Numbered from the stretch's first letter, positions 21,842-49,427 are shown. The stretch is DNA of 64,000 nucleotides from Mesorhizobium sp. (GCA_049647745.1 JBARYG010000002.1:13383-77382); one strand, 5' to 3'. Notes: generated by a model not told the origin, from the sequence alone. Translations and numbers: made by a program.

Positions 21842-21855
21842 TTGATTCAAAGCAA
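21842..21855. promoter_or_regulatory. FNR/FixK-type box, one mismatch (TTGATTCAAAGCAA)
   Basis: Lies in the divergent nosR / ferritin-like intergenic region, 76 nt from nosR ATG 21766 and 53 nt from ATG 21908. Confidence 0.55.
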
Positions 21856-21907
21856 AGCGACGACAGATTGCGCGCCTATGCTGCCTCACAAACCAGAGGG
21901 CCATCCG

Positions 21908-22756
21908 ATGACTCGCCTTACATCCGAGCCGACGGCGTCAATCCGTTCGATGAACGAACTGCTGGCTGTCGCCATGGCGATGGAAAAGGAGTCGGCAGAG
22001 CGGTACGCCGGTCTCGCAAAGCACATGCGCACGGTCGGCCAGCAGGATCTGGCTGAAGTATTCGACCGCCTGGTCAGTGAGGAGAACGGCCACATAGGCC
22101 TCGTCGCCAATTGGTCACGGCAGATTCAGGACCGCGTGCCGGAGGTGCTGCCGCCTGAAGCCGTTCCCCAAGGCGTTTTCGATGATGAGGGCATTCACCT
22201 CGTCTCACCAGAACTGGTGGACGCCTATCGCTCTTTGGCAGTAGCCGTGCGGAACGAGGAGCGCGCCTTCGCCTTCTGGTCCTATGTCGCCGCCTATGGC
22301 GCAACGGCGGAAATCCGCAAGGCAGCCGAGCGGATGGCCAGCGAGGAGCTGGAGCATGCCAAAACGCTGCGGCGCGAACGCCGGAAGGCTTTTTTCAAGA
22401 ACAGGCACCTGAGACCGTCAGTCCAGGAAACCTACGATTTGTCCGCCCTGGAAATGGAAGTCTGCACACGTCTCGAGGAATATGCCGACATGAGCGGAAA
22501 CAAAAAGGAATATCGCGATCTCGCTCTCGAGGCGCGCACGCTCTCTCTTGATCTTGCATCGGATGCCCTGCAGGAGCCCGCCCCAGTCGGTCCACCTCCA
22601 CCACGATCTCTCGAGGCACTTTGTGAGTGGCTGGCCGACTATTATATCGACGCTGGCGAACACCTGCTTTCGCAGGCCGCCCGGGATCGGGCTCAGGCTC
22701 TTGCCACCATTGCCGTCAAGCGCCTGGCCCTCATCAGAAATCTGGGAAGAACGTAG
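21908..22756 (+). CDS. Ferritin-like / rubrerythrin-fold di-iron protein, function unknown
   Basis: AMEKESAERYAGLA..EENGH and ...NEERAFAFWSY..ASEELEHAKTL are two E..H-type helices. Start at ATG 21908; ATG 21878 is possible. Confidence 0.6.
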   Translation: MTRLTSEPTASIRSMNELLAVAMAMEKESAERYAGLAKHMRTVGQQDLAEVFDRLVSEENGHIGLVANWSRQIQDRVPEVLPPEAVPQGVFDDEGIHLVSPELVDAYRSLAVAVRNEERAFAFWSYVAAYGATAEIRKAAERMASEELEHAKTLRRERRKAFFKNRHLRPSVQETYDLSALEMEVCTRLEEYADMSGNKKEYRDLALEARTLSLDLASDALQEPAPVGPPPPRSLEALCEWLADYYIDAGEHLLSQAARDRAQALATIAVKRLALIRNLGRT

Positions 22757-22914
22757 ACGAATACCGGCTGACTTTGACAAGCTGCCGCAACCTCTCATCG
22801 GGTCACTCTTGTGGTCTAGGGGTTGCAGTTGCTGCCCTCTCGATACAACGCTAGCCCGAAGCCAACCGGTTTGCTGACCGGCGCACCGTACCGAGACAAC
22901 TCGCATTCGCCAGT

Positions 22915-22928
22915 TTGTGCTGCATCAA
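22915..22928. promoter_or_regulatory. FNR/FixK-type box, one mismatch (TTGTGCTGCATCAA)
   Basis: 78 nt upstream of pseudoazurin ATG 23006. Confidence 0.5.
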
Positions 22929-23005
22929 AGTCGGTTGCCAATGTTCGCAGTAAAAGCCCCGCAACATTATTTTTCTGTAACGCAGAAGGGCAGAAAGGCA
23001 AGAAA

Positions 23006-23449
23006 ATGAAATACATAAGCTTCGCTACAGCGGTTTTCGCCGCCATGATGATGACAGGCGCCGCCTATGCGGCAGACCATCAAGTGCAGATGCTCAATAA
23101 GGGCACTCAGGGCGTTATGGTCTTCGAGCCCAATTATATCGAGGCCGCCCCCGGTGATACGGTGACCTTCGTGCCGACAGACAAGGGGCATGACGCTTCC
23201 AGCATCGACGGCATGCTTCCCGAGGGGGTGCAACCCTTCAAAGGCGAGGTCAGCAAACCGATCACCGTCACCATCGACAAGGAAGGCGTCTACGGCGTCA
23301 AATGCGTGCCTCACTATGGCATGGGCATGGTGGCGCTGATCGTCGCGGGCAGGCCGTCGAATCTGGACCAGGCCAAGACAGTCAAGCAACCGGGCAAGGC
23401 GAAGAAAGTTTTCGAAGAGCTATTCGCCAAGGTCCCCGCTGGCAACTGA
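23006..23449 (+). CDS. paz: Pseudoazurin (type-1 copper protein)
   Basis: 147 aa. Signal peptide MKYISFATAVFAAMMMTGAAYA. FVPTDKGHD...GVYGVKCVPHYGMGM carries the H/C/H/M copper ligands. Confidence 0.9.
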   Translation: MKYISFATAVFAAMMMTGAAYAADHQVQMLNKGTQGVMVFEPNYIEAAPGDTVTFVPTDKGHDASSIDGMLPEGVQPFKGEVSKPITVTIDKEGVYGVKCVPHYGMGMVALIVAGRPSNLDQAKTVKQPGKAKKVFEELFAKVPAGN

Positions 23450-23475
23450 ACAGAGGACTGAAGCCCGATTTCCTC

Positions 23476-23508
23476 GCCGCCTCCGGCTCGTCCGGAGCGG
23501 CTTTTTTA
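23476..23508 (+). terminator. Rho-independent terminator after pseudoazurin
   Basis: GCCGCCTCCGG-ctcgt-CCGGAGCGGC followed by TTTTTT. Confidence 0.6.
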
Positions 23509-23591
23509 TGCGGAGAGCACGCCCTTGAGGAAGCCTCGGTACTAACTCTGTCGGACCTCTGGTCCTTCCGATGCCGGGGCTCCCGTTGTTC

Positions 23592-25163
23592 TTACCTGAA
23601 ATAGATATTGAATCTCGCACGTAACGCAGCATCGATTTCCGGCTCGATGACCGAGCCCGCCCGTGAAAGAATTTCATTTTTGCGGGCGATGGCCTTGTCG
23701 AGCAGCATGGGCTTGCCGGCCTCGACCCACTCCTTGGGACTCATGCGATTGCCGACGACAGGGTAGACATATTCCGTTTGCATCAACTGGAGGGTCTGGT
23801 TCGAGCCAAGATAGTGGCCGGCTCCTCCCAGACATACTTCCTTCATTACCTCGATGCTGGTCGTATCGTCCGTAACGTCGATGCCGCGAACGAGGCGCAT
23901 CACCTGACCGAGAATATCGTCACCAAGAACCATGCTCTCAAGACAAAAGCCGAGCAGCGAGGCGTGCATCCCGACCGACTCATAGCAGAGGTTGAGGCCG
24001 GACAGGCCTGCAAGCGTGTTCGTGATGCCCTGCTCCCAACCCGCCTGCATGTCGGGAAGCTTCGAGTCCGATATTCCCGACGCCGCTCCGCCCGGCAAGT
24101 CGTAAAAGCGATGCATCTGCGCACATCCTGCCGAAAGCAGCGCCTGTTCGGCACTGCCACCCGACATGGCGCCCGTGCGCAGATCCGACACAAACGGCCA
24201 GGTGCCGAAGATCGCGGGCGCACCGGGCCGAATGGCGTTCACATAGACCACGCCCGCAAGACATTCCGCCATCGCCTGCACAATGGCCAGCGCGATCGGC
24301 GCGGGCGCAGTAGCTCCGGCCTGCCCTGCCGAAAGCAGGAGCATCGGCATTCCGCCACGGACGCATTCTTCCAAGACGCGGCAGCTTTCCTCGGCAAACT
24401 TCATCGGCGGGACGACAAAGCAATTGGAGTTGCTGACGAAAGGCCGCTCCCGCCACTTGTCCTCGCCGCCGGCCACCATATGCAGCATTTCGAAAGCGTC
24501 GGCGACATGGTCAAGGTCGAAGATACTCGTCCCGACATGCTTGCGCGTGCCCGAAAGGCAGGCGTAGAGCGTGTTGAGGTCCATCTCCTTGTTATCCGCC
24601 ACGTCGCGGCAGACCACCGTGCGCTGGAAGAAGTGGACGTTGTCGAGATGCTCCGCCAGCCGTGCGGAATCGTATAGATCCTGCGCAGTGGATTCGCGGT
24701 AGCTCGACGTCAGGGGGTCGACGATGTGCACCGCCGCTCCCGCCGTGCAGAAATGCACGCTCGTCCCGGAGAGATGCATATCGTGTTTGGGATCGCGGGC
24801 GTGCAGGGTGATGTCGCGCCCGGCTTTCGCCAGCATGTCCTCGACAAGAGCGCGGGGAAAGCGGATGCGACCGTCATCCCCCAGTATCGCGCCGGCCCCG
24901 CACAAAAGCTCCACGCCCGAAGCCGGCGCATTGGCAAGCCCGATTTCCTCCAGCGCCTGTAACGCCGAAGCATGAATCTTTTCCACGCCCGCCTGGGTCA
25001 GAGGCTTGTACTGGCCACCGGGAAGACCCGCCCGTACCGGCCGCAGATTATCCGCCAACGGCGCGGCGCGAGCCGCCACCCGTGCCGCGCGGCCCCCGGA
25101 GCGGGCCGAGCGCCGAGCCATCTCGGGAGCGCATAGTTCATCGACAGCGTTCATGTTTGTCAC
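23592..25163 (-). CDS. MttB-superfamily (non-pyrrolysine) methyltransferase, quaternary-amine type
   Basis: 523 aa with full-length resemblance to trimethylamine methyltransferase family proteins. No in-frame TAG. Confidence 0.85.
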   Translation of the reverse strand: MTNMNAVDELCAPEMARRSARSGGRAARVAARAAPLADNLRPVRAGLPGGQYKPLTQAGVEKIHASALQALEEIGLANAPASGVELLCGAGAILGDDGRIRFPRALVEDMLAKAGRDITLHARDPKHDMHLSGTSVHFCTAGAAVHIVDPLTSSYRESTAQDLYDSARLAEHLDNVHFFQRTVVCRDVADNKEMDLNTLYACLSGTRKHVGTSIFDLDHVADAFEMLHMVAGGEDKWRERPFVSNSNCFVVPPMKFAEESCRVLEECVRGGMPMLLLSAGQAGATAPAPIALAIVQAMAECLAGVVYVNAIRPGAPAIFGTWPFVSDLRTGAMSGGSAEQALLSAGCAQMHRFYDLPGGAASGISDSKLPDMQAGWEQGITNTLAGLSGLNLCYESVGMHASLLGFCLESMVLGDDILGQVMRLVRGIDVTDDTTSIEVMKEVCLGGAGHYLGSNQTLQLMQTEYVYPVVGNRMSPKEWVEAGKPMLLDKAIARKNEILSRAGSVIEPEIDAALRARFNIYFR

Positions 25164-26318: not shown

Positions 26319-26332
26319 TTGACCAGGATCAA
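26319..26332. promoter_or_regulatory. Perfect FixK/FNR box TTGACCAGGATCAA
   Basis: TTGA-N6-TCAA, 66 nt upstream of ATG 26398. Confidence 0.7.
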
Positions 26333-26397: not shown

Positions 26398-26805
26398 ATG
26401 ATATTGCCGAATGGCACTACCGTCGCCGTCATCGATGGCAAAAAGCTGCGGCTGTTCCGTAATAACGGCACAGAATCCCGCATCCAACTGGTCGAGGAAA
26501 CGATCGCCGGGACACAGCCTGCCAACCGACGTTCAGGTACACGCAGCCGCAACAACCCCGTCGAACCGAATGGCTTGCAGCGGAAGAACGACGACTTCGT
26601 AGCCCGGGCGTCAGCGTATCTGGATAGGTTGATACGGCACCGGAAGATTATCTCACTATTTATCGTCACCGATCCACGGACGTTAGGAGAATTGCATCGT
26701 CACTTCCACGATGCGACCAGAGAAACCCTGATCGGTGAGTTGTTGGGCAGAGATTTCACGAGCAGTAGTGTCAGTTCGATCGAGGCTGCGCTTACCAGAG
26801 CATGA
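26398..26805 (+). CDS. Host-attachment protein family (baeRF12, eRF1-like fold) protein, copy 1
   Basis: 135 aa. MILPNGTTVAVIDGKKLRLFRN...FIVTDPRTLGELHRHFH. Paralogue of 49496-49900. Confidence 0.75.
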   Translation: MILPNGTTVAVIDGKKLRLFRNNGTESRIQLVEETIAGTQPANRRSGTRSRNNPVEPNGLQRKNDDFVARASAYLDRLIRHRKIISLFIVTDPRTLGELHRHFHDATRETLIGELLGRDFTSSSVSSIEAALTRA

Positions 26806-26857: not shown

Positions 26858-27462
26858 ATGGGCTACCGCCGTGGCAGTAGCGCACGCGTGTCCCGGGCGG
26901 TTCGCCTGACAGAGGATCTCGACGCTAGATTGAACGGAACAAGAGGGTCGGGGTTGGGGATTCCCCTGGACCTGCTGGCATGCGCGTCGGTCGCATGTGC
27001 AGCAACATCTCCTTCACCGTATCTCCCGGCGGTCGGCAGCCGGCAGCGGTTGCGCGCCATCGTCACGAACCCGAAGAGCCGCCAGAAGCACGTCTGGCAG
27101 GCTCGGATCGTCCTTCTGAGCGGTGCCGGTCTGGGCACCTCGGTAATCATGGCCGAGACCGGCAAGTCCAAAACCTGTGTTCGGCGCTGGCAGGAGCGCT
27201 TCATGCACGACCGCGTTGGCGGCCTGTTTTGCGATAGGTCTCGTCCGCCTAAAGGCCCCGCTTCCACCGGAGCATATCGCCGAAATCATTCGCCTAACGC
27301 AGGCTCCGCCATCGCACGAGGCGACCCATTGGACGTTGCGCGCGATGGCCAAGACCGTGGGTATCGCGGCGTCGACGGTGCAGGGCATCTGGAAGGCGCA
27401 CGGCCTCAGCCCACACCGCTGACGGCACTTCAAGCTCTCCAACGATTCGGTCTTCGATTGAA
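26858..27462 (+). mobile_element. IS630-family transposase, N-terminal HTH part only (frameshift plus stop, 3' truncated)
   Basis: RQKHVWQARIVLLSGAGLGTSVIMAETGKSKTCVRRWQERF.. is in one frame and PPEHIAEIIRLTQAPPSHEATHWTLRAMAKTVGIAASTVQGIWKAHGLSPHR in another. Similarity stops after FKLSNDSVFD. Confidence 0.65.
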
Positions 27463-27468
27463 CAACGG

Positions 27469-27674
27469 GCCGCCGAGCACGGCGTCGCTGTCGAACTGCT
27501 GCACGAAGTCGACGACGCCTCCTCGAGAGCCATCGTCAGGCGACCAAGCTAATGGGATGCGATCTGATCGTCATGACGACCCATGGACGGCGGGGCGCGC
27601 AGAGATTGATGCTCGGCAGCCAAACCGACGAGGTCGTCACCCATACCGACGTTCCGGTTCTGGTGGTCCGGTAG
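27469..27674 (+). pseudogene. USP C-terminal remnant left by the IS630 insertion/deletion
   Basis: ..AAEHGVAVELLHEV.. and then MGCDLIVMTTHGRRGAQRLMLGSQTDEVVTHTDVPVLVVR* (TAG 27672-27674). There is no N-terminal half. Confidence 0.6.
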
Positions 27675-27722
27675 TTCCCGATCGTCCAGGTCGGCGAACG
27701 CTTGCGGCGAAAGACACCGTTC

Positions 27723-27736
27723 TTGATCGGCATCAA
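27723..27736. promoter_or_regulatory. Perfect FixK/FNR box TTGATCGGCATCAA
   Basis: Full TTGAT-N4-ATCAA, 77 nt upstream of ATG 27813. Confidence 0.75.
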
Positions 27737-27812
27737 GGCAGTATATCGTGCTGACTGTAGATTTTCTGTCATCGTGAAATCACAGGCGCGGTGGCGACGG
27801 AAAGGCAAACCC

Positions 27813-28634
27813 ATGAGCTATAAGTCCATCCTCGTGAACCTCGATATCGACGGACCTATCGTCCCCGTCGTGAAAACAGCAGCCGACCTGGCAGGACGCT
27901 TCCAGGCGAGGCTAATCGGCTTTTGCGCCGCCGACGCTCCCATCGTCGTGGCCGATCCTGCCGGTGCCGGCCTGGCCTCCGAAGCATGGATGCAGATGCG
28001 CAACGACATACAGTCCCGCTTCAAGGATCTGCACGACAAGTTTGACAAGCTGATCGCCGGCAAGGTGGCGACCGAATGGCGTGAGGCACTCAATGATCCG
28101 ACGCGCGCCTTGGCGGAGGCTGCGCGAGCGGCGGACCTGGTCGTAATGAGCGCGGTCGAAGGCGCGGCGACGGGCGACGCTTACCGGCAGGCGGATCCCG
28201 GAAGCATCGCTCTTCAAGCGGGGCGCCCCCTGCTCGTCATCGCTCGCGACGCCGAACAGGTGCGGGCGAGGAACATCGCCGTCGCCTGGAAGGATACGCG
28301 CGAGGCGCGTCGCGCTCTCGCCGACTCACTGCCGCTGTTGAAGGTGGCCGAATCCGTGACGGTTGTGACAGTCGTCACCGAAGTCGACCAATGGGCCCGC
28401 GCAAGCCTCGCGGACATTATGGCCTTTCTTGGAGCGCATGATGTCGAAGCGCGGCCGGAGCTGGTTGAAGGTGCCGACGAACACATGGCGCTGTTCACGG
28501 CGCTGGACAAGTGCGGCGCCGACCTGATCGTGTCAGGAGCATACGGCCATAGCCGCCTGCGCGAATGGGCCTTTGGCGGTGTGACGCGCTCACTGCTCGA
28601 CGAAACCGGGCGGAACCGCTTCATGGCGAGCTGA
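27813..28634 (+). CDS. Tandem-USP-domain protein
   Basis: 273 aa. MSYKSILVNLD.. in the first domain and ..ADLIVSGAYGHSRLREWAFGGVTRSLL at the C-terminus. Confidence 0.85.
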   Translation: MSYKSILVNLDIDGPIVPVVKTAADLAGRFQARLIGFCAADAPIVVADPAGAGLASEAWMQMRNDIQSRFKDLHDKFDKLIAGKVATEWREALNDPTRALAEAARAADLVVMSAVEGAATGDAYRQADPGSIALQAGRPLLVIARDAEQVRARNIAVAWKDTREARRALADSLPLLKVAESVTVVTVVTEVDQWARASLADIMAFLGAHDVEARPELVEGADEHMALFTALDKCGADLIVSGAYGHSRLREWAFGGVTRSLLDETGRNRFMAS

Positions 28635-28721: not shown

Positions 28722-31256
28722 GTGGAGCAGAAAGAGAAATTGGCCGGGGCGTATTGGTCGGTTCCGACAGGAACGTTGCTGACCAGCCTGCATTCAAGCT
28801 CAGCGGGCCTTTCCTCCGACGAAACGCACAGTAGACTTCGTGACGCCGGTCTGAACGCGGTCGGCCGAATGGGACGCGCCTCCGCACTCGCTGCCTTTGC
28901 GCGGCAGTTCCGCAGTCCGCTGGTGCTTATTCTTATCTTCGCGGCGACCGTGTCGGCGTTCGTGGGCGAAGGCAGCGAAGCGGTGATCATCGGCATCATC
29001 GTGCTAACGAGCTGCATACTCTCGTTCACGCAGGAATACGGTGCCTCCAAGGCGATGGAGGCACTGACGGCACGCATCGCCCGCAAAGCCTCCGTGCTGC
29101 GCGACGGCCGCGAGGTATCCGCCGCCGTCGCAGAGATCGTACCGGGCGACGTAATCCGGCTTTCCGCCGGCAATCTGATTCCGGCTGACGGCGTGCTATT
29201 GGAGTCGCGCGACTTCAACGTCAGCGAGGCAGCGCTCACCGGCGAAACCTTTCCCGTAGTCAAGGCTCCCGGTGTTTCGGCGCCGGACGCCCAGATCGGC
29301 CAGCGCATCAATGCGGTCTTTACGGGCACCTCAGTCCGCAGTGGCACAGCCACCATGCTTGCGGTACGCACCGGCAAGGAGACGGAATTCGCGGCCATCG
29401 CCGGGGCGATTGCTCGCGCCGTGCCCGAGACGGAGTTCGCCAAAGGTATCCGTCGCTTCGGTTATCTGATGACGGAGATCATGCTAGTCATCGTCATCCT
29501 CGTCTTCTTCGCCAATCTCCTTCTGCACCGCCCCGCCATCGACTCGCTGCTGTTCTCGTTGGCTCTGGCGGTCGGCCTGACACCGGAACTGCTGCCGGCC
29601 ATCATCAGCGTCACGCTGGCGCGCGGTGCCCGCACCATGGCGGCGAGTGGCGTCATCGTGCGCCGGCTCGAGGCCATCGAGAACCTTGGTAGCATGGACC
29701 TGTTATGCACCGACAAGACCGGAACACTGACGGAAGGAACCATTCGCCTGGATGGCTGTCTGAGTACCAAAGGGGCGGCTTCACCCGAGATCCGGCTGTG
29801 GGCGTTGCTTAATGCGACATTGCAGTCCGGCATGGCAAATCCCCTCGATGAGGGGATTGCTGCCAGCAGGGGTTCTGATGACGAACTTTCGGCATATCGA
29901 AAGATTGACGAGATTCCCTATGATTTCATCCGCAAGCGGCTGTCGGTGATCGTGCGGCGGAAGGATGCCACCGAGGACCTGCTGATTTGCAAAGGCGCAG
30001 TCCAAAACATTGTTGAGGCTTGCATGCTCGATGAGCAGCAGGCAAAAGCCATCGACGAGAGGGTGCAAGGCTGGTGCATGCAGGGCTTTCGCGTGCTTGG
30101 CCTTGCGGTGCGCCGCTTTCCGTCGCGCCAGACCTATGGCCGCGAGGATGAGGCAGAGCTTGCCTTCGCTGGATTCCTTCTGTTCCTTGACCCACCGAAG
30201 CCGGACATGGCCGAGACATTGAAGGCCTTGGCCAAGCGCGGCATCAAGGTGAAAGTCATCTCCGGCGACAATCGCCATGTTGCGGCGCATCTGGCGCAGA
30301 TCATCGGCCTGCCGCATCGCCACATACTCACCGGCGACGAACTGGCGAAGCTGACCAAAGAGGCGCTGTTCGCCCGCGTCGCACGTGTCGATATCTTCGC
30401 CGAGATCGATCCCAACCAGAAGGAGCGCATCATCGAAGCGCTACGCCGACGTGGCCATGTCGTTGGCTATATGGGCGACGGCATCAACGATGCCCCGGCC
30501 CTGCACGAAGCCGATATCGGCATCTCAGTTGATGGCGCCGTCGACGTGGCACGGGAGGCTGCGGACATGATCCTGCTTAAGCGGGACCTCGGCGTACTGC
30601 TGCGTGGTGTCGACGACGGCCGGCGAACCTTCGCCAACACGATGAAGTACATCTCTATCACCACCAGCGCCAATTTCGGCAACATGGTCTCGATGGCCTT
30701 CGCGTCGCTTGCATTACCCTTCTTGCCGTTGCTGGCCCCGCAAATCCTTCTCAACAACCTGCTATCGTCTCTACCCTCGTTGGCCATAGCACGCGATCGC
30801 GTAGATGCCGAGCAGATCGAGACGCCGCGCCGCTGGGATATTGGTTCGATCCGTCGCTTCATGATCTATTTCGGGCTGGTGAGTTCCTTCTTCGATTTAG
30901 TAACCTTCGGCTTTCTCCTGCTGGTGATGCATGCGGGAGCCGGAACGTTCCGGACGGGATGGTTCGTCGAATCGCTGCTAACGCAACTGGTGATCGTCCT
31001 CGTCATACGCACGCACCAGTCCTTCTGGCGGAGCCGGCCAAGCGCGCTCTTGGCGTGGCTGACACTGGCAATCGGCCTGCTCGCCGTGAGGATTCCCTAC
31101 CTGCCTGGCTCAGCCAGGTTCGGCTTCACGCCGCTGCCTACGCAGATAATGGCAGGTCTAGTCGCGATCACACTGATTTATCTGACCGCATCGGAAGCGA
31201 CTAAACGCTTGTTCTTCGCACGCGAGCGGCGGCTCACCAAGCATCGCCGGACTTGA
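28722..31256 (+). CDS. P-type ATPase, MgtA/cation-transporting (type II/III) class
   Basis: 844 aa, GTG start. Motifs TGET, DKTGTLTEG and MGDGINDAPAL, plus ten predicted TM helices. Confidence 0.88.
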   Translation: MEQKEKLAGAYWSVPTGTLLTSLHSSSAGLSSDETHSRLRDAGLNAVGRMGRASALAAFARQFRSPLVLILIFAATVSAFVGEGSEAVIIGIIVLTSCILSFTQEYGASKAMEALTARIARKASVLRDGREVSAAVAEIVPGDVIRLSAGNLIPADGVLLESRDFNVSEAALTGETFPVVKAPGVSAPDAQIGQRINAVFTGTSVRSGTATMLAVRTGKETEFAAIAGAIARAVPETEFAKGIRRFGYLMTEIMLVIVILVFFANLLLHRPAIDSLLFSLALAVGLTPELLPAIISVTLARGARTMAASGVIVRRLEAIENLGSMDLLCTDKTGTLTEGTIRLDGCLSTKGAASPEIRLWALLNATLQSGMANPLDEGIAASRGSDDELSAYRKIDEIPYDFIRKRLSVIVRRKDATEDLLICKGAVQNIVEACMLDEQQAKAIDERVQGWCMQGFRVLGLAVRRFPSRQTYGREDEAELAFAGFLLFLDPPKPDMAETLKALAKRGIKVKVISGDNRHVAAHLAQIIGLPHRHILTGDELAKLTKEALFARVARVDIFAEIDPNQKERIIEALRRRGHVVGYMGDGINDAPALHEADIGISVDGAVDVAREAADMILLKRDLGVLLRGVDDGRRTFANTMKYISITTSANFGNMVSMAFASLALPFLPLLAPQILLNNLLSSLPSLAIARDRVDAEQIETPRRWDIGSIRRFMIYFGLVSSFFDLVTFGFLLLVMHAGAGTFRTGWFVESLLTQLVIVLVIRTHQSFWRSRPSALLAWLTLAIGLLAVRIPYLPGSARFGFTPLPTQIMAGLVAITLIYLTASEATKRLFFARERRLTKHRRT

Positions 31257-31319
31257 TCACAATCAAGGGCGTCGGTTCGCGAGCTGTGTAGCCTCGGCTC
31301 GATCATCCGGAGAGCCGCT

Positions 31320-31913
31320 ATGCCGCGCCGCATCCTCATCATACTTGGTCATCCAGATGGAAATCCGACGCGCCTGTGCCGGGCACTCGCCGGCGCCTAT
31401 GCCGAAGGCGCACGCTCGGCCGGCCATGAAATCCGGCTCCTCGACGTCGCGACGCTCGATTTCCCGATCCTCCGGAGCGCGGAAGAGTTCACCGAACGGT
31501 CCCTGCCGGTCACGCTGGAGGACGCTGCCCAGGCGATCAAGGATGCGGAGCATCTCGTCTTCATCTTTCCGCTGTGGCTTGGCACCATGCCTGCTCTGTT
31601 GAAAGCCTTCCTGGAACAGGTAATGCGGCCGGGCGTCGCCTTTGCTTATCCCGAAGCAGGCAAGAACGGCTTCGCCAAGACGCTGCTCAAGGGCCACTCG
31701 GCCCGCGTGGTGGTGACCATGGGCATGCCGGCCTCGTTCTATCGCTTCTGGTATCTAGGCCACGGTGTCGCCGGCATGCGTCGCAACGTCCTGAACTTCG
31801 TCGGCATCAGCCCGGTCTGGGAAACGCTGTTCGGGATGGTGGAAAGCGCAAGCGACGCCAAGCGCAGGAAGTGGATTTCCGCCATGCATGCGCTCGGGAA
31901 ACGGGCTGGTTAG
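31320..31913 (+). CDS. Flavodoxin-fold NAD(P)H dehydrogenase (quinone)-like protein
   Basis: 197 aa. MPRRILIILGHPD...HLVFIFPLWLGTMPALLKAFLEQV is typical of the Flavodoxin_2/KefF-like family. Confidence 0.8.
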   Translation: MPRRILIILGHPDGNPTRLCRALAGAYAEGARSAGHEIRLLDVATLDFPILRSAEEFTERSLPVTLEDAAQAIKDAEHLVFIFPLWLGTMPALLKAFLEQVMRPGVAFAYPEAGKNGFAKTLLKGHSARVVVTMGMPASFYRFWYLGHGVAGMRRNVLNFVGISPVWETLFGMVESASDAKRRKWISAMHALGKRAG

Positions 31914-34032: not shown

Positions 34033-34046
34033 TTGACCGGGATCAA
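34033..34046. promoter_or_regulatory. Perfect FixK/FNR box TTGACCGGGATCAA
   Basis: 71 nt upstream of the minus-strand start 33962. Confidence 0.7.
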
Positions 34047-34065: not shown

Positions 34066-34079
34066 TTGATCCAACGCAA
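34066..34079. promoter_or_regulatory. FixK/FNR-type box, one mismatch (TTGATCCAACGCAA)
   Basis: 63 nt upstream of ATG 34142. Second box in the divergent USP/USP intergenic region. Confidence 0.5.
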
Positions 34080-36160: not shown

Positions 36161-36190
36161 CAGCAATCCCTTCCCGCTTCAGTCACTCGC

Positions 36191-39124: not shown

Positions 39125-39178
39125 CACTGCTCCTTTCGGCAGCCCAAAGCAATATGGCTCGGAAACACGATCTTTCAC

Positions 39179-39192
39179 TGACAGGTGTCAAA
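39179..39192. promoter_or_regulatory. FixK/FNR-type box, one mismatch (CTGACAGGTGTCAA)
   Basis: 55 nt upstream of cytochrome c ATG 39124. No other obvious promoter element lies between this gene and xfp-ackA. Confidence 0.5.
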
Positions 39193-39656: not shown

Positions 39657-39670
39657 AACCAACTCCTTTT

Positions 39671-40387
39671 CTACGGCTTCTTTTCCGGGCCTACCATACT
39701 TGGATTTTCCATAGCCGCGTTCTGGCGTTTGCTCGTCGCGGCGCCCCTGCCCGCCTGGCCGCGCTCCAACGCGGCGAGGACACCCTCGTCGTCGAGCTGT
39801 TCGAAATTGCGATAGTAGTAGCCAAGCGCCCGAAAATGCGGCGGCTGCGCCAGGCACACGACACGATCCGCCTCTTGGCTAAGTTCGGCCACGATGTCCG
39901 GCGGGGCGATCGGCAGTGCCACGACAATTGCCATCGGCGATCGCCTTTTGAGGGCGCGTACCGCCACCTTCATCGTGGTGCCGGTTGCCGCGCCGTCGTC
40001 AACGAGAACCACAGTTTTCCCGGCAATAGAGAGCGGCGACCGGCTGCCTCGGTAGAGGGCGCTGCGACGCTGCAGCTCCGGCCGCTCGTGTTTCACTAGC
40101 ATCGCCAGAGCCGCGTCGTCGAGATTGTAGGCTTCCACGATTTCGCGGTTGAGAACGACGTCGGGCGGATCACCATCGACAATCGCCGCGACGGCAAGTT
40201 CAGGGTTACCTGGAGCGCCCACTTTGCGGACGACCACCAAGTCGAGAGGCGCTTTCAACTTAGCAGCGATCTCGGCAGCGACAGGTATGCCGCCACGCGG
40301 TAACGCAAGGACGACAGGTGCATGAAGCGATAGCCCGGCGAGTTCGTTCGCGAGCATTCGTCCTGCTTCCTGTCGATCGCAAAACAT
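39671..40387 (-). CDS. Phosphoribosyltransferase-family protein
   Basis: FCDRQEAGRMLA..VLALPRGGIPVA...VVLVDDGAATGTTM is the PRTase motif. Confidence 0.85.
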   Translation of the reverse strand: MFCDRQEAGRMLANELAGLSLHAPVVLALPRGGIPVAAEIAAKLKAPLDLVVVRKVGAPGNPELAVAAIVDGDPPDVVLNREIVEAYNLDDAALAMLVKHERPELQRRSALYRGSRSPLSIAGKTVVLVDDGAATGTTMKVAVRALKRRSPMAIVVALPIAPPDIVAELSQEADRVVCLAQPPHFRALGYYYRNFEQLDDEGVLAALERGQAGRGAATSKRQNAAMENPSMVGPEKKP

Positions 40388-40390
40388 GGC

Positions 40391-40819
40391 TCAGTCCGCC
40401 GGCCAAAGCTGCCGGAGCGCCTTTCTCATGGAGTTGCGGACCTGTTCGGCCTCTCCTACGGAGATATGGCAGTCGATAAGATGAAAAACGGCCCCGATGG
40501 CACGATCAAAATCGATCTCGTCCTCAAAGCCGAACTCCCTTCTCACGGCAATGATGAAATCGCGCTTGCGACGATCGTGGCCAAGGCCGTTGAGGGGGCG
40601 CCAGCCTTCGAAGAAGATGCCGCGGATCAGGGCAGGCAATTGCGCCGCGAGATCGCTCATTTCTTCCGGCGGTAGCCAGTCCCTGAGCGCGTGCAAGACT
40701 GCTCTTAGCAGTCGATAGGCACGTGGGATATCCCACTTCAACTCATCAGCAACTTCATTGACCCAATGTTGCGCCTGTTGTGCTGCCTGCGAAAAAGTCG
40801 AGATTGTCGTTTTGGTCAC
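40391..40819 (-). CDS. DUF2267 protein
   Basis: 142 aa. F..AAQQAQHWVNEVADEL...AYRLLRAVLHALRDWLPPEEMSDLAAQLPALIRGIFFEGW. Confidence 0.75.
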   Translation of the reverse strand: MTKTTISTFSQAAQQAQHWVNEVADELKWDIPRAYRLLRAVLHALRDWLPPEEMSDLAAQLPALIRGIFFEGWRPLNGLGHDRRKRDFIIAVRREFGFEDEIDFDRAIGAVFHLIDCHISVGEAEQVRNSMRKALRQLWPAD

Positions 40820-40920: not shown

Positions 40921-40934
40921 TTGACCCGGATCAA
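40921..40934. promoter_or_regulatory. Perfect FixK/FNR box TTGACCCGGATCAA
   Basis: 102 nt upstream of ATG 40819. Confidence 0.7.
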
Positions 40935-41004
40935 AGGCTCGGATTTTCTCATGTCGGCACATGATAGACACTTGTCCGTGGTTCAATTGACCCGCGACGC
41001 GCTG

Positions 41005-41271
41005 CTAGCTCACCCTATTTCCCGAGGCAGCATCCGTCCACGCCCGCCAATGCGTCGGTGATACATCAAGCCTTTCATGGGTCTTTGATGCGATCCATCC
41101 AGTCAGAATACGTTGACAGGGAAACACCAGCGCATTGGTACCATCCTGGTTCTGTACCGCCAGCTCGAGATCGCGGTTAAAGGGCGCGGTCGCTATTAAA
41201 TGCCATTTGCATTTCCCCGAAGGTTCCCGGGTGTCCGGTCCCAATCTCGCCTGCCGATGCAGAGTGCTCAT
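41005..41271 (-). CDS. Hypothetical 88-aa protein translationally coupled to fixK
   Basis: ATGA overlap with the fixK stop. KWHLIATAPFNRDLELAV..FPCQR..PTHWRAW. No family name recalled. Confidence 0.5.
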   Translation of the reverse strand: MSTLHRQARLGPDTREPSGKCKWHLIATAPFNRDLELAVQNQDGTNALVFPCQRILTGWIASKTHERLDVSPTHWRAWTDAASGNRVS

Positions 41272-41915
41272 GCAGCCAAGTCCTGGAGCGTCTGCAACTT
41301 AATGATTTCCACGCACCGTAAACTTGGCAAGCCAATGACTCCTTTGCTCTTGAGCCTGGAAAAGACCCGCGAGACGGTTTCGATCGTCAGGCCGAGATAG
41401 TCCGCAATATCCAAACGTGACATCGGAAGTTCGATCTGGCGCAGGCCGCCTTGACGCTCGGACATCTCAAGGAAGAAAGCCGCGACGCGTTCCACCGCAT
41501 TCTGGCGACCAAGCACCAGAAGCTGCTCCTGGGCCCGCACGAGGCTTTGAAGCGCCATGGGCAGGAGTTCGGCTACGACGTGGGAAGCCGAAGGGCTGAG
41601 GATGCGAATGCCGGTGCCGCAAATCGCCTCGGCGAAGAAGTGATGGCGCTTGTCTGCTTCGAAACCGAACATTTCGCCGGCCAGGTGAAATGCCGATATC
41701 TGACGCCGGCCGTCCGAGAGAAGACGGTAAATGCGAACGGCGCCGAACTCCACCTGGTAGAGGTTCGCGCACAGCTCGCCCTGGGCGTAAATTTCCGAGC
41801 CCGCCGGGAAGAATGTGGCAGGTCGGCCGCTTCCCAGCGGCACGCTGGGTTCGTTGCGATCGAGAAGGATACCGCCAAGCTGGCGGGAATAGTGGGATTG
41901 CTCAAAGTTCGTCAT
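41268..41915 (-). CDS. fixK: Crp/Fnr-family regulator FixK
   Basis: GAGGGA upstream of ATG 41915. YQVEFGAVRIYRLLSDGRRQISAFHLAGEMFGFEA...LPMSRLDIADYLGLTIETVSRVFSRLK is near-identical in pattern to rhizobial FixK. No N-terminal Cys cluster, so FixK-like rather than FNR-like. Confidence 0.9.
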   Translation of the reverse strand: MTNFEQSHYSRQLGGILLDRNEPSVPLGSGRPATFFPAGSEIYAQGELCANLYQVEFGAVRIYRLLSDGRRQISAFHLAGEMFGFEADKRHHFFAEAICGTGIRILSPSASHVVAELLPMALQSLVRAQEQLLVLGRQNAVERVAAFFLEMSERQGGLRQIELPMSRLDIADYLGLTIETVSRVFSRLKSKGVIGLPSLRCVEIIKLQTLQDLAA

Positions 41916-42327
41916 GAATCGTCCCTCGATACCGATGGCGAGACAATCCACTCAATTCCGATGGATCGAAATTCGGTTATACCCGTACGGGTTTCTACGT
42001 ACCGGGGTCAGGGCTTGCCAGTGATCGCGTCTTAAACAGCCTGCAGGAGCGGTTCACCGGGGAACGATTTCGCCAGACATCTCGCGTGCGGCACATCCTG
42101 TGGTAGGCGGTATTGGTCGATCAGCAGAATAACGGGATGGGCACGTCCATTACGGTCGAAACGGCCGGCAGGCAGTTCTTGCGGCCATCGCCATCAACGC
42201 ACTTCCAAGAGTGATCCTGGCCATGGCGAACCTCTTCGGTTCGCTTCTGGGCACCATTGCTTCTGGCGACAGCTGGAACTGGCACACTCGGGGGTGCTGT
42301 CTTTGTCTTCTCACCATGGGTCATGCC

Positions 42328-42341
42328 TCGATACCGATCAA
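42328..42341. promoter_or_regulatory. FixK/FNR-type box, one mismatch (TCGATACCGATCAA)
   Basis: 62 nt upstream of ATG 42403. Confidence 0.5.
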
Positions 42342-42402
42342 GGACGGCCCTTCGCCGCCTTGGCATGAGAGATACAAAAGGGAGCATCTCACGAGCGGCA
42401 CA

Positions 42403-42777
42403 ATGAAATTGCCTGCAAATGTCCGCCACGTGCGCCTGCTGCTTGCACGCGAGAAGGCTCACTCAGAAGGTACGCGTGACGAAGGCTACGACCTTCTCTT
42501 GCCGCTCGACAACGAGGGGCGTCTCGATCCCCACGAATGAGAGGCGCATCAGGCTTCCTACCGGATCAGACGGTTCGACGAGCATGGAGATGTCAAGATC
42601 GGTCCCTTGCAGCGCAAGCCTGGTGAACAATGGTACTTCGACTATGAAGAAGGTGAAAGCGACGACGAGATCGGTTTCCGCCTCAATGACGAGTGCTTCG
42701 TGACCGGCGAGTATGTGTCGATCGGCACGCGCGCGTCCATGCACACATATCAGGTGGCCCGCGTCGAGAAACCCTGA
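42403..42777 (+). pseudogene. Conserved-hypothetical gene interrupted by an in-frame TGA at 42538-42540
   Basis: The 45-codon ORF ..HVRLLLAREKAHSEGTRDEGYDLLLPLDNEGRLDPHE* runs straight into a 78-codon start-less open frame: EAHQASYRIRRFDEHGDVKIGPLQRKPGEQWYFDYEEGESDDEIGFRLNDECFVTGEYVSIG..VARVEKP*. Confidence 0.65.
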
Positions 42778-43142
42778 CCGGCGATGGGACGCATCGCACA
42801 CCTCGCGCTGATCGTTATTGCTTTGGCTGACCTTGCCTGCGGCCTGGGCGCCTGGCTGTGGGCGACCCCATCCCTTGCATTTTGTCTCTGGACCGCCGGT
42901 ACTGTGCCGGTCGTAGCCGGCCTCGGCATCTCGATCGTTCGCGATCTGCTCGCAGGCCGAATGGGCGTCGATGCCGTGGCCTTCATCTCCGTGTCGCCGG
43001 CGCTTGCCTTTGCATCACGCGCCGGCCTCGGCAGCCCTTCCATAAGGCCAGGTCCAGTCGCAGATCTCGGGCATTCCCGATAGTTGTGACCCTGGAGAAC
43101 GACGTACCGCTTCAAAATCTGCACGGCCGGAGCCGGATTGAA

Positions 43143-43156
43143 TTGACGCCGATCAA
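43143..43156. promoter_or_regulatory. Perfect FixK/FNR box TTGACGCCGATCAA
   Basis: 153 nt upstream of ATG 43309. Confidence 0.6.
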
Positions 43157-45751: not shown

Positions 45752-45765
45752 TTGATTCAGATCAA
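45752..45765. promoter_or_regulatory. Perfect FixK/FNR box TTGATTCAGATCAA
   Basis: Full TTGAT-N4-ATCAA, 54 nt upstream of ATG 45819. Confidence 0.75.
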
Positions 45766-45818: not shown

Positions 45819-46226
45819 ATGGCGATGAAAAAGGTCATGTCAGCGTTGTTCATCGGTTTCAATGTTGCCAGCGCGGTTGCCGGCGAGCGGATGAGTTATG
45901 GCGAAGCCGAATATCTGAATTCGTGTGCGGTCTGCCACGGAGTCGAGGGTAAGGGCGACGGACCGCTGAGCGACTTGCTCGTCAAGCGTCCTGCCGATCT
46001 CACAAGCATCAGCAAGCGCAATGGAGGCAGGTTCCCATATGCCCGCGTCATCGCCGTGATCGATGGGCGATATGACGTGCCGGGGCACGGCAATCGCGAC
46101 ATGCCTGTCTGGGGACACCAATTCCTTGAGGATGACCAGCGTCTGTATGGTCCAGCGGGCGGGGAAATCGTCACGACCGAGCGCATTAACGAGCTTGCGG
46201 GTTACGTCCAGTCATTGCAACGTTAG
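45819..46226 (+). CDS. Monoheme c-type cytochrome, copy 2
   Basis: 135 aa. Signal peptide, heme motif CAVCH, DMPVWG. Paralogue of 38717-39124. Confidence 0.85.
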   Translation: MAMKKVMSALFIGFNVASAVAGERMSYGEAEYLNSCAVCHGVEGKGDGPLSDLLVKRPADLTSISKRNGGRFPYARVIAVIDGRYDVPGHGNRDMPVWGHQFLEDDQRLYGPAGGEIVTTERINELAGYVQSLQR

Positions 46227-46824: not shown

Positions 46825-46994
46825 TTTTCCCTCCGAGCAATTCGGCAGGAGTTGCAATCATCTTGTCAGGCTCGCGTCGACGCCTTGAGTCGGATTTTGA
46901 GGCACGGCTCCTGCGCTCGCGTCGGTCAGGTATTACCAATCAACGGTACACGATGGGATCATCGACCGGCCTTGATCCAGCGCAAGGCAGCCCG

Positions 46995-47008: not shown

Positions 47009-47092
47009 AAATGAAACGGCTTTCTCGACAGGCGGACCGAGCAGGTGTCGCGCTTGAACAGGCACGGTCCTGTCTTGCCAGAGGAACGAAAG

Positions 47093-47780
47093 ATGCGCGT
47101 CAAGGATCTGATGAAATCGAATGTCGTACCGTGAAGCCGGACAATACGTGAAACACGCTGCGCAGATAATGCTGGCCAAGGGGATAAGCGGCCTTCCGGT
47201 CGTCGACGATCGCGATGTGCCGAGAGGCATCATCACTGAAGGCGATTTCCTCCGCAGGAGCGAAATCTGCGCCGAGAGCCGCTACAGCGGAAAAAGGAAG
47301 CGTTGCGGAACGGGCGACAGCCTTTGTCAGGAACCATAGCTGGAAAGTCGCCGATGTCATGACCCAGGGCATCATCGCGGTCGAAGAGGAGGCTTCGGTC
47401 GGTCGAGTGGCCGCGCTCATGGACGATCATCATGTCAAGCGCATACCGGTAACACGCGAGGGCCGTCTCATTGGTATCGTCAGCCGCGTCGATCTGCTTC
47501 GATTGATCGCGACTGCCGAACCGGACGATTGCGCCCCCGGCGACACCGCCATCAGACGCAGCATCCTGGGGGCAAAGCCGCGTTCAACGACCTGGTCAAG
47601 CTCTCCATTATCGTCTCTGACGGAGTGGTGCATCTATGGGGCAACGTCGGCTCAACGAACGAGCGAGAGGTGGCGTGCGTCATTTCGGAAGGCGTAGGCG
47701 GAGTTGCTGGCGTTGTCGACCACCCGCCTTTCCTCCGTCAAAGACGCGGCAATGAATGTCATCGCTCTGCCGAGCGATGA
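47093..47780 (+). pseudogene. CBS-pair + BON domain gene, multiply frameshifted
   Basis: MRVKDLMKSNVV / TVKPDNT / VKHAAQIMLAKGISGLPVVDD..GIITEGDFLRR / ..VADVMTQGIIAVEEEASVGRVAALMDDHHVKRIPV..LIGIVSRVDLL / ..LSIIVSDGVVHLWGNVGSTNEREVA are spread over three frames. Confidence 0.7.
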
Positions 47781-47860
47781 CACTGTCCGCATGATTTGCG
47801 CGCAAATGCCTGTCGGTGGGTGCGGTTGACCGTTGGGGGGCTCTCGGCGTCGTAACGGCT

Positions 47861-47874
47861 TTGACCCCGGTCAA
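47861..47874. promoter_or_regulatory. Perfect FixK/FNR box TTGACCCCGGTCAA
   Basis: 72 nt upstream of ATG 47946. Confidence 0.65.
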
Positions 47875-47945
47875 TGCCAATTTTCGCGCGGGGTGCCATT
47901 CTCGCAGCCATTGGTAGCAAAACTGTCTTGTCACAAGGCTTACTG

Positions 47946-49252
47946 ATGCCATCGATCCGAGTTCTTGCCGTTCTGATCTGTGCCGCCGCAACGTCGATCA
48001 GCCCGATGCCGGCCGCAAGCGAGAACTCCCTCGCCCCGATGCTCACCCGTGTTATCCCAGCGGTTGTCAGCATCTCAGCCGAAGGTGCCATATCCGCAGG
48101 CCAGTCCATTCCGCCTGGCGCTCCGGTCCTGCCTACGGTAGGTTCCGGTTCAATCATCGATGCGGCGAGAGGTCTCGTCCTCACTGACTACCACGTCATC
48201 CAAGGAGTTGGCGCGATCTCGGTCACGCTTTCGGACGGACGCAGCTTCGAGGCAGGGATCGTCGGGACGGATGCCGATTCCGATATCGCCGTTATCAAGA
48301 TCGATGCCAGAGGTCTTTCGGAATTGCCCATGGGAGATTCGGACAAACTCAAAGTGGGCGACTATGTAGTAGCGGTCGGGAATCCGTTTGGCCTTTCCCA
48401 GACCGCTACGCACGGCATCGTCAGCGCGCTTGGAAGAACTGGCTTCGAGACGGAGCCTATGAAGGCTACATCCAGACGGACGCCGCCATCAACCCAGGTA
48501 ATTCCGGAGGCCCCCTGGTCGACCTCGACGGACGTATGGTTGGCGTAAACAGCGCTATCATCGACGCGTCGGGCGGCAGCATAGGGATCGGATTTGCTAT
48601 TCCATCGAACGCTGTAAAGCACATCCTTCCTGAACTGATCGCACATGGAGAGGTCTGACGCGGACAGCTCGGTGTCGTCGTACAGGATCTGACTGCAGAT
48701 CTTGCGGCGGCGCTCCGTGCCAACATGTCGAAGGGCGCCGTCGTCAGCCAGGTGCTTCCCGGTTCCGGTGCGGATGCGGCAGGCCTTGCGCCTGGCGACG
48801 TAATTCTCGCCATCAATGGTCAAGACGTGGCTGATGCCGGTGAACTGCGCCGCTCGATCGGCAACCTCGCGCCGCAGGCGAAAGTCCATGTCACCGCGCT
48901 TCGGGACGGGCGAAAGATCGATCGTGATGCGGAGGTATCGCTGAAAATAAGCGGACCGGCCACCTACCATGGTAGAGGACTTCTCGAATCCGTCTTGCTG
49001 GCCAAAGTGACGTCCGGGTCGCCCGCCTACGGCAAGGTCCAAGGCGCCGCTGTGGTATCCGTCGAACCGGATAGTGCCGCGGCAAGCAGCGGGCTCGTGG
49101 AAGGTGACGTTATCGCGACAATTGACCGGAAGCCGATAGGCGGTCCTGAGCGGGCTGCACGCATCGCGGCCGACCATGCGGACCTGCTTCTCCTCGGAAT
49201 CTACCGAGATGACCAGATGCACTTCGTCGTGGTTCGTCGCGGGAACAGTTGA
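47946..49252 (+). pseudogene. DegP/HtrA-family serine protease with one frameshift (about 48450) and one in-frame TGA (48656-48658)
   Basis: Signal peptide, then ..[30 protein letters not shown]. After the frame change it reads [36 protein letters not shown], followed by two PDZ-like regions to TGA 49250-49252. Confidence 0.8.
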
Positions 49253-49304
49253 TACCGCGCACCAGGATCCTGTGCAGCTTCTGCTCAAGCATACAGGGAC
49301 GGCG

Positions 49305-49382
49305 ATGTACGAGCAGATTCTCATTCCAACGGACGGTTCAAAAACCGCTCAGAGGGAAAAGGCGACGATGCCTTGGCGCTAG
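49305..49382 (+). pseudogene. USP N-terminal remnant
   Basis: MYEQILIPTDGSKTAQ is followed by unrelated sequence and a stop. Confidence 0.5.
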
Positions 49383-49413
49383 GAATCTTTGCGCCAAGGT
49401 TACTCCGCCATAC

Positions 49414-49427
49414 TTGACCAGGGTCAA
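49414..49427. promoter_or_regulatory. Perfect FixK/FNR box TTGACCAGGGTCAA
   Basis: 69 nt upstream of ATG 49496. Confidence 0.7.

Follow-up and report, generated by a model that had tools for sequence, protein, structure and literature searches.

Clustered FixK/FNR-type boxes around a fixK gene of Mesorhizobium sp. suggest a local low-oxygen regulon

The DNA considered here, 64,000 nucleotides of Mesorhizobium sp. (GCA_049647745.1 JBARYG010000002.1:13383-77382; hereafter the window, with positions counted from its first base), encodes a FixK-like regulator surrounded by short dyads of the form TTGA-N6-TCAA. An exact scan of the window found 11 perfect dyads, starting at 26319, 27723, 31253, 34033, 40921, 43143, 45752, 47861, 49414, 58509, and 61193; the first-pass annotation had reported eight, all of them exactly where we find them, and had missed those at 31253, 58509, and 61193. 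Together with several imperfect sites, these boxes very probably mark a clustered low-oxygen regulon of FixK/FNR type, with about 15 independent promoters between 21.8 and 61.2 kb. This reading of the sequence was already put forward in the first-pass annotation, and we hold it with high confidence because placement outside genes, promoter geometry, conservation, regulator identity, and gene content all support it. The sites, the regulator gene with its upstream features, and the genes concerned are as follows (USP, universal stress protein; PRTase, phosphoribosyltransferase; ORF, open reading frame).

21842..21855, divergent nosR / rubrerythrin-like intergenic region: box TTGATTCAAAGCAA with a GCAA half-site, its centre 59.5 nt away from the start of the rubrerythrin-like gene (ATG 21908) and about 82 nt from that of nosR (ATG ~21766); -10-like TATGCT 21 nt after the box on the plus side
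22915..22928, plus: weak box TTGTGCTGCATCAA, a tentative site with a low matrix score, 84.5 nt upstream of the pseudoazurin gene (ATG 23006, end 23449); TAAAAG 22 nt after the box
26319..26332, plus: box TTGACCAGGATCAA before Host_attach/baeRF12 gene 1 (26398-26805); TAAGGA 22 nt after the box
27723..27736, plus: box TTGATCGGCATCAA before a tandem USP gene (27813-28634) that is followed by the gene for a Mg-type P-type ATPase (28722-31256)
31253..31266, plus: box TTGATCACAATCAA, overlapping the P-type ATPase stop codon, 60.5 nt upstream of a Flavodoxin_2 NAD(P)H dehydrogenase gene (31320-31913)
34033..34046, minus: box TTGACCGGGATCAA before a tandem USP gene (33126-33962, minus)
34066..34079, plus: box TTGATCCAACGCAA before a USP-like ORF (34142-34930)
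39178..39191, minus: box CTGACAGGTGTCAA, first base mutated (CTGA...), before a cytochrome c gene (38717-39124), the unit continuing with phosphoketolase (36191-38596) and then acetate kinase (34985-36166)
40921..40934, minus: box TTGACCCGGATCAA upstream of DUF2267 (40391-40819), PRTase (39671-40387), and PNPOx (39303-39857) genes
41268..41915, minus: fixK, a FixK2-like CRP/FNR regulator, 215 aa from the ATG
41980..42003, minus: conserved element GGTACGTAGAAACCCGTACGGGTA, 65 nt upstream of the fixK ATG
42014..42193, minus: fixT-like remnant, the C-terminal 54 aa, with the N-terminal 75 codons missing
42328..42341, plus: box TCGATACCGATCAA, 68.5 nt upstream of a small conserved ORF (42403-42777)
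43143..43156, plus: box TTGACGCCGATCAA, 159 nt upstream of a beta-CASP metallo-beta-lactamase gene (ATG ~43309, end 44892)
45752..45765, plus: box TTGATTCAGATCAA before a cytochrome c gene (45819-46226)
46972..46985, plus: box TTGATCCAGCGCAA before a CBS-pair gene (47093-47697) with several frameshifts
47861..47874, plus: box TTGACCCCGGTCAA before a DegP-like protease gene (47946 to ~49330) with a frameshift and an in-frame stop
49414..49427, plus: box TTGACCAGGGTCAA before Host_attach/baeRF12 gene 2 (49496-49900), then a USP gene (49956-50405)
58509..58522, minus: perfect dyad TTGACCGACCTCAA between Pyr_redox_2 (SQR-like) and ArsR-family genes
61193..61206, plus: box TTGACGTCGATCAA before an LTXXQ (Spy/CpxP-like) gene (61291-61836), then a PLD-family gene (61897-63375)

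The dyad is far more frequent in the window than chance would have it, as had been claimed earlier. Among 100 dinucleotide-preserving shuffles the mean was 0.72 dyads and the maximum 4, so that none reached 11. Our conservative gene list, built from ORFs and Pfam/NCBIfam matches, makes 74% of the window coding, and all 11 perfect dyads are either non-coding or extend at most 4 bases into the end of a gene, a placement with a probability of 0.26^11, or about 4e-7. A repeat search of the window found no miniature inverted-repeat transposable element (MITE), repetitive extragenic palindrome (REP), or other dispersed repeat carrying the boxes, and MITE/REP repeats were rejected as carriers for this reason. 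The search returned only the paralogy of the two host-attachment genes and one 32-nt similarity of 78% between 43128 and 61178. Duplication of promoters in general was rejected as the source of the array, extended similarity being confined to the two host-attachment promoters, and Rfam and tRNA scans gave nothing relevant to the boxes. The notion that the array is a chance or compositional artefact, or a dispersed repeat, can appeal to the roughly one perfect dyad per 64 kb that chance should supply, perhaps the one at 58509, and to a one-mismatch class that is barely enriched; it is effectively refuted by the shuffles, the non-coding placement, the lack of a repeat family, and the fixed spacing and cross-species conservation described below.

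Imperfect sites call for more caution. Allowing at most one mismatch gives 32 sites in the window against 16.9 expected, and the 21 imperfect ones among them compare with about 16 expected; because this class is barely enriched, each such site has to be judged on its own context. The published FixK2 box consensus is TTGA/C-N6-T/GCAA (PMC9104804), and the dyad fits it, in line with the earlier identification of TTGA-N6-TCAA as a FixK/FNR-type motif. A scan with this relaxed consensus adds three intergenic sites with a GCAA half-site, at 21842, 34066, and 46972, along with three coding matches that are probably noise. With a position weight matrix trained on 14 sites, the training sites score at least 13.6 and the best coding match 12.3; the best two matches from outside the training set, at 42328 (17.4) and 58509 (13.4), are both non-coding. 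Six one-mismatch sites had been proposed in the first-pass annotation. Those at 21842 and 34066 fit the FixK2 consensus and are intergenic, the one given as 39179 in fact begins at 39178, and 42328, a candidate site, scores well on the matrix and lies ahead of the small conserved ORF. The 22915 site scores poorly, while being intergenic and followed by TAAAAG at the right spacing. At 46995 the proposal does not hold: the matching 14-mer begins at 46996 and is probably not a real site, and the better box lies 24 nt upstream, at 46972.

The boxes also occupy a consistent position relative to the genes they precede. Each of 16 sites was oriented by the start codon closest to it, in most cases one preceded by a Shine-Dalgarno-like purine run. 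The box centre lies 59.5-114.5 nt from this codon in 15 of them, and 159 nt from it at the beta-CASP gene, in agreement with the 54-153 nt given in the first-pass annotation. As an unbiased test for -10 elements, we counted at each offset from 0 to 49 the sites with A at position i and T at i+4 (hexamer positions 2 and 6). On the gene-ward side 5 of the 16 sites score at offset 22 and 5 at offset 23, with at most 2 at every other offset, and on the far side the count at offsets 22-23 is 1 of 16. The -10-like hexamers begin 21-22 nt after the box and include TATGCT, TAGATT, TAGCCT, CATATT, CAGTCT, CATTCT, CAAAAT, GAATCT, and similar sequences. If the A at hexamer position 2 is taken as -11, the dyad centre falls at -41.5 or -42.5, which for the transcription starts so predicted would be the classical class II position of FNR-type activators.

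Comparison with relatives shows many of the boxes to be conserved, often together with their -10 hexamers. We retrieved 31 reference-genome loci with the FixK protein (individual loci carry L numbers below); the closest, with FixK proteins of 88-94% amino-acid identity, come from Mesorhizobium spp., M. composti, and Aquamicrobium soli, and the closest relatives are syntenic with 27.6-42.1 kb of the window at 80-88% DNA identity. Boxes 27723, 31253, 34033, 34066, and 40921 are kept while their flanks diverge, and the -10 hexamers are usually kept too. Thus the 27723 box and its TAGATT hexamer persist in L002 and L007; the 31253 dyad is perfect in L002, L005, and L006 and has one mismatch (a TCGA half-site) in L007; the 34033 box is invariant in five relatives except for one spacer base in L006; and the half-sites at 34066 are kept with a TATCGC/TATCCC hexamer in five relatives. 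The mutated site at 39178 is a perfect TTGAC(G/C)GGCGTCAA in L003 and L004, and the 40921 box is kept in all seven relatives compared. Further out, the host-attachment boxes 26319/49414 are kept upstream of homologues in relatives (L002 included for 26319), and the 61193 box is kept upstream of LTXXQ homologues in L001 and L006, where the flanks diverge. For the sites at 21842, 22915, 43143, 45752, and 47861 the fetched loci contained no orthologous region. Dyads are dense in the relatives as well, with 5-7 perfect ones per 20 kb of fixK locus. The idea that the window closely resembles an already known plasmid, S. meliloti pSymA for example, was rejected: megablast of 30-50 kb against PLSDB gave only matches of about 75% identity to the phosphoketolase gene.

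The regulator encoded in the middle of the array, a FixK homologue according to the first-pass annotation, is FixK2-like. Its ORF matches the Pfam HTH_Crp_2, Crp, and cNMP_binding domains, and its best match in the PDB is B. japonicum FixK2 (4i2o, E = 3.5e-41), FNR-type proteins following at about 1e-22. The recognition helix GLTIETVSR aligns with GLTLETVSR of FixK2, so that E-x2-SR is present, and the translation has no N-terminal Cys cluster of the CX2CX5C type, its cysteines after the ATG being scattered. The exact protein occurs in two metagenome contigs, and a tblastn search found no second CRP/FNR gene in the window. Adjacency to fixLJ in relatives adds to this identification: in M. composti (L004) the order is fixL (PAS-HisKA-HATPase), fixJ (receiver-LuxR), a 130-aa fixT-like ORF, and fixK. 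Direct adjacency there and absence from the window argue that the fixLJ-fixK linkage is ancestral and was lost here. In the window fixL, fixJ, and the N-terminus of fixT are replaced by about 1 kb of gene remnants (42140-43140); this junction recurs in an independent metagenome scaffold of 99.86% identity and is thus not an assembly artefact.

Upstream of fixK the element GGTACGTAGAAACCCGTACGGGTA is largely kept in eight relatives, with TACGTAG and CCCGTACGG invariant. It is a candidate FixJ site only, by its likeness to GTAMGTAG, reportedly a FixJ-site motif (Ferrieres and Kahn 2002); a literature search for a FixJ box consensus returned nothing. Direct autoregulation of fixK through a FixK box was considered and rejected, since no matrix match above 7 lies between 41915 and 42200, upstream of the gene. 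On the other side of fixK, the right flank of the 40921 box (AGGCTCGGATTTTCTCATGTCGGCACATGATAGA, 40935-41271) is conserved in relatives, and gene callers place there an 88-aa ORF with no Pfam match (41005-41271, minus) that overlaps the fixK stop codon. A box-driven plus-strand transcript from the 40921 region could conceivably run antisense into the 3' end of fixK.

From these observations we infer binding by the local FixK, the transcription starts, and the oxygen response. In the mechanism we propose, a dimer of the FixK-like protein would bind each dyad through its E-x2-SR recognition helix and recruit RNA polymerase in class II fashion, replacing the -35 element. Microoxia would then switch on accessories of respiration and denitrification (the rubrerythrin-like gene with nosR, which belongs to an intact nosRZDFY(L)X cluster in the window, pseudoazurin, and two c-type cytochromes) and a fermentative route to ATP (phosphoketolase and acetate kinase). 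It would also induce a persistence and stress set comprising the tandem USPs, the two Balon-like host attachment proteins discussed below, the CBS protein, DUF2267-PRTase-PNPOx, the beta-CASP hydrolase, the P-type ATPase, DegP, and the LTXXQ protein. Activation of fixK itself would presumably fall to FixJ, acting at the conserved GTACGTAG...CCGTACGG element in front of the gene.

Several points weigh against such a regulon and have to be set beside the evidence for it. At three sites, 40921, 43143, and 61193, the gene-ward sequence lacks a good -10 hexamer where class II activation would require it: the minus side of 40921 shows no clear -10 at that spacing, and the direction of activation at 43143 is uncertain because a better hexamer (CAGATT) lies on the opposite side. 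The corresponding stretches of L002 and L007 lack the perfect dyad at 58509 and have a different neighbouring gene; this dyad not being conserved, scoring 13.4, and falling within the one chance dyad expected per window, its function is doubtful. The NCBIfam FixK (Caulobacter) equivalog is the top family match of the regulator, at 171 bits against a cut-off of 300. With respect to the upstream signal path, fixL and fixJ were not found in the window and the fixT-like gene is truncated. Several of the genes preceded by boxes are pseudogenes. Finally, the dyads bound by FixK, FNR/FnrN, and DNR/NnrR-type proteins are almost alike (PMC2908626), so that sequence alone cannot prove FixK to be the binder, and paralogues with genes beyond the window might use some of the sites jointly with FixK or in its place, above all those at the nos and pseudoazurin genes.

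This last point can be developed into an alternative in which the boxes are genuine CRP/FNR-family sites used mainly by a paralogue encoded elsewhere, such as an FnrN-type [4Fe-4S] protein, an NnrR/DNR-type nitric oxide sensor, or an AadR-like protein, the local FixK being one of several users or not the main one. The FNR, FixK, and DNR motifs are near-indistinguishable, and alpha-proteobacteria often have several such proteins (PMC2908626); the 21842 and 22915 boxes flank denitrification genes, nosR and pseudoazurin, that are also NnrR-responsive in other rhizobia, and fixLJ is missing beside fixK. We nevertheless consider this unlikely, given that a single CRP/FNR gene is present in the 64 kb, that the cluster is syntenic with fixLJ-fixK in relatives, and that the gene families match FixK2-dependent genes of Bradyrhizobium (PMC9104804).

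The state of the target genes bears on another alternative. The CBS-pair gene (47093-47697) has at least 3 frameshifts, the DegP-like gene (47946-49330) a frameshift and an in-frame stop, and the small ORF (42403-42777) is interrupted by a TGA, in frame at 42538, in place of the Trp codon of a relative; FixK-type boxes are intact upstream of all three. At 26858-27683 a USP gene is disrupted beside an IS630 transposase fragment, and of a P-type ATPase an N-terminal fragment of 99 aa is left at 42784-43083. Random sequencing error is an unlikely cause of these lesions because the long genes nearby are intact. The array might accordingly be read as a decaying relic, with boxes inherited intact and a circuit that is partly non-functional, fixLJ/fixT having been deleted from the locus and targets having become pseudogenes. 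The truncated fixT-like gene, the absence of fixL and fixJ from the window with the same junction in an independent metagenome contig, the broken CBS, DegP, USP, and small-ORF genes with the ATPase fragment, and insertion sequence (IS) elements at 8.4-11.1 kb all speak for decay. The fixK gene and its conserved upstream element are intact, however, as are most of the long targets, including xfp (801 aa), the ATPase (844 aa), nosZ, and nosR, and fixLJ may simply sit elsewhere in the genome; we therefore think a relic improbable, slightly more so than predominant use by a paralogue.

The IS debris just beyond the nos cluster comprises two ORFs (10137-10595 and 10631-11080) that together represent a split IS110-family transposase, and a fragment of a DDE transposase (8365-9024); it suggests a rearranged or mobile region at 8365-11080. 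Some candidate genes were rejected: the minus-strand ORF 48362-49324 (320 aa) lies opposite the DegP pseudogene, which has PDZ domains on the plus strand; minus-strand ORFs at 42121-43124 lie opposite the small conserved plus-strand ORF and the P-type ATPase fragment; and the ORF 26858-27754 (HTH) is an IS630 transposase fragment beside the broken USP gene.

Other features of the window stand apart from the boxes. At the 58509 region, what L002 and L007 keep is a different element beside the ArsR-family gene: a strongly conserved TTGCAT(C/T)TAACATTCAAGGATTATAAATTCAA (58523-58545) lies directly upstream of this gene (58546-58923). Adjoining a sulfide:quinone-oxidoreductase-like gene, it may be a BigR/SqrR-type repressor operator and is unrelated to the FixK dyad. 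On the minus strand, a small cluster at 3551-6136 holds genes for Nfu/FeS-assembly and DUF2249-TusA proteins and for a protein of 451 aa without a Pfam match; no FixK-type box was found at these genes or at the USP gene 1675-2124. An Rfam match to PYLIS_3 (the pyrrolysine insertion sequence of mttB) at 23975-24073 (minus; 44.1 bits, the gathering score being 38) falls within an unbroken MttB-family ORF of 523 aa (23592-25163) that lacks in-frame amber codons, and probably reflects coding-sequence homology in a non-Pyl MttB relative.

Among the predicted targets, the two host-attachment genes (26398-26805 and 49496-49900) led to the most useful by-product of this analysis. They are paralogues encoding single-domain proteins of 134-135 aa, both annotated as 'protein required for attachment to host cells' and both matching Pfam baeRF_family12 (E = 2e-18 and 6e-26). 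An AlphaFold model of copy 2, made from a 28-sequence alignment, has a mean pLDDT of 83.4 with predicted disorder only in loop residues 40-56, and the conserved NQGSG-RH loop of the host attachment proteins is predicted to be disordered. Among PDB structures, Foldseek ranks the ribosome hibernation factor Balon highest for this model (Msmeg1130, Rv2629, and the protein of P. urativorans), ahead of aRF1/eRF1, at query-normalised template-modelling scores (TMq) of 0.58-0.64. The match covers the middle domain only (target-normalised scores, TMt, of 0.25-0.27 against targets of 360-375 aa), and the three-domain architecture of Balon, with its decoding-site and EF-Tu-binding domains, is not present in proteins of 134-135 aa. 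Family and fold matches point to single-domain relatives of Balon/aeRF1 built on the RNase H-fold central domain. Some baeRF-1 families keep only the core domain, and Burroughs and Aravind predicted for core-only aeRF1 relatives a role in shutting down translation without catalysis (PMC6514570). Hypoxia induces Rv2629, which is an inhibitor of translation (PMC10901736).

It is therefore reasonable to suppose that FixK might switch on mini-Balon proteins under microoxia. A bolder extension is a FixK-driven hibernation programme under hypoxia, a counterpart of DosR uncoupled from FixLJ, in which translation is shut down and RNA and nucleotide pools are remodelled. Its members, products of box-bearing genes whose role is not established, would be the two Balon/aeRF1-like proteins, the tandem USPs, CBS, DUF2267-PRTase-PNPOx, the beta-CASP RNase-like hydrolase, and the P-type ATPase. 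We offer this programme tentatively, as something that could be true but is more probably not. If it were true, the mini-Balon proteins would be minimal blockers of the A site or the peptidyl-transferase centre, the programme would be an alpha-proteobacterial counterpart of the mycobacterial DosR regulon, which holds the Balon homologue Rv2629, and in this strain the deletion in front of fixK would have cut its link to FixLJ.

Our findings fit into a picture that exists already. The array repeats the FixK regulon described in other rhizobia, and only the instance itself is new; it backs the view of FixK as controlling hypoxia and persistence without opening another, and its value is mainly one of annotation. 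That value lies in a near-complete map of about 15 FixK-type promoters in a Mesorhizobium/Aquamicrobium-like organism not studied for oxygen control, in which conserved, as yet uncharacterised families that always travel with FixK in rhizobia (host-attachment/baeRF12, tandem USPs, DUF2267-PRTase-PNPOx, beta-CASP, and CBS) are packed round the regulator. The local peculiarities are the loss of fixL, fixJ, and most of the fixT-like gene, the several pseudogene targets, and the single-domain Balon/aeRF1 relatives. The most interesting leads are the Balon-like proteins and the DosR-like composition of the regulon, and the hypothesis most worth carrying forward is the one tying the rhizobial microoxia response to translational hibernation through Balon-like proteins.

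The nearest known system is FixLJ-FixK2 of Bradyrhizobium diazoefficiens, whose regulon has been defined by experiment. Units there that have boxes and depend on FixK2 include phosphoketolase-acetate kinase, PNPOx-cytochrome c, RND/HlyD efflux, an operon for an MBL-fold hydrolase, and genes for a USP and for a host attachment protein, the last with box TTGATCGGGATCAA at -69 (PMC9104804, Table 2), and USP, host attachment, CBS, phosphoketolase, and PNPOx proteins are microoxia-induced in Bradyrhizobium (PMC6515984). The gene set is thus better characterised than the first-pass annotation suggests, its families being already known as FixK2 targets or as microoxia-induced. FixK2 is also the main activator of nosRZDFYLX (PMC5582078). 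The two systems share the box consensus and the target families, and their boxes lie at similar distances from start codons, those in Bradyrhizobium at -37 to -106 for most targets, and the window regulator is the closest sequence relative of the solved FixK2 structure. They differ in that the window is Mesorhizobium/Aquamicrobium-like, its targets are packed into about 40 kb around fixK, and fixLJ is not adjacent; no fixNOQP/cbb3 oxidase operon was found in the window. The crystallised FixK2 was a C183S protein (PMC9104804), and the window residue aligned with the Ser of 'PMSR' in the PDB chain is also Ser. If this PMSR Ser is the position of C183, the oxidation-sensitive Cys of FixK2 is absent here.

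Beyond Bradyrhizobium, Dufour, Kiley, and Donohue (2010), who assigned regulons in alpha-proteobacteria from the co-occurrence of box and regulator, listed phosphoketolase, CBS, cytochrome c class I, HlyD, and FixLJ in a predicted core FixK regulon that is a cross-species consensus (PMC2908626, Table 1). Of these families, phosphoketolase, CBS, and cytochrome c have homologues behind boxes in the window, which adds the lineage-specific beta-CASP, DUF2267-PRTase, Flavodoxin_2, LTXXQ-PLD, and DegP genes. A similarly compact, USP-rich low-oxygen cluster is the lxa locus of Burkholderia cenocepacia, with about 50 low-oxygen-induced genes, among them many USPs, cytochrome c, and stress proteins; it has ties to a CRP/FNR regulator that goes by the name of FixK in B. 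dolosa, and has been explicitly likened to the DosR regulon (PMC6127331). That locus belongs to a beta-proteobacterium, however, differs in its individual genes, and has its regulator encoded outside it.

The comparison with DosR/DevR applies to the window too. This hypoxia and dormancy regulon of M. tuberculosis has many USPs (PMC6127331) as well as the Balon-family hibernation factor Rv2629, encoded near the CBS protein Hrp1 (PMC10901736). In the window, likewise, a hypoxia regulator would govern USPs, CBS, an ATPase, a PRTase, and Balon-like proteins. The DosR regulon also includes a P-type ATPase (ctpF) and PRTase-domain proteins. Yet DosR is a NarL-type regulator, in contrast to the CRP/FNR type found here, and recognises a different DNA motif, and the resemblance is one of functional convergence and not of circuit homology. 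For promoter architecture the model is E. coli FNR, whose class II promoters carry a TTGAT-N4-ATCAA dyad near -41.5 that replaces the -35 element. The spacing to the -10-like hexamer is the same at 10 of 16 sites in the window, whereas FNR senses O2 through an N-terminal [4Fe-4S] cluster and the window protein has no such Cys cluster.

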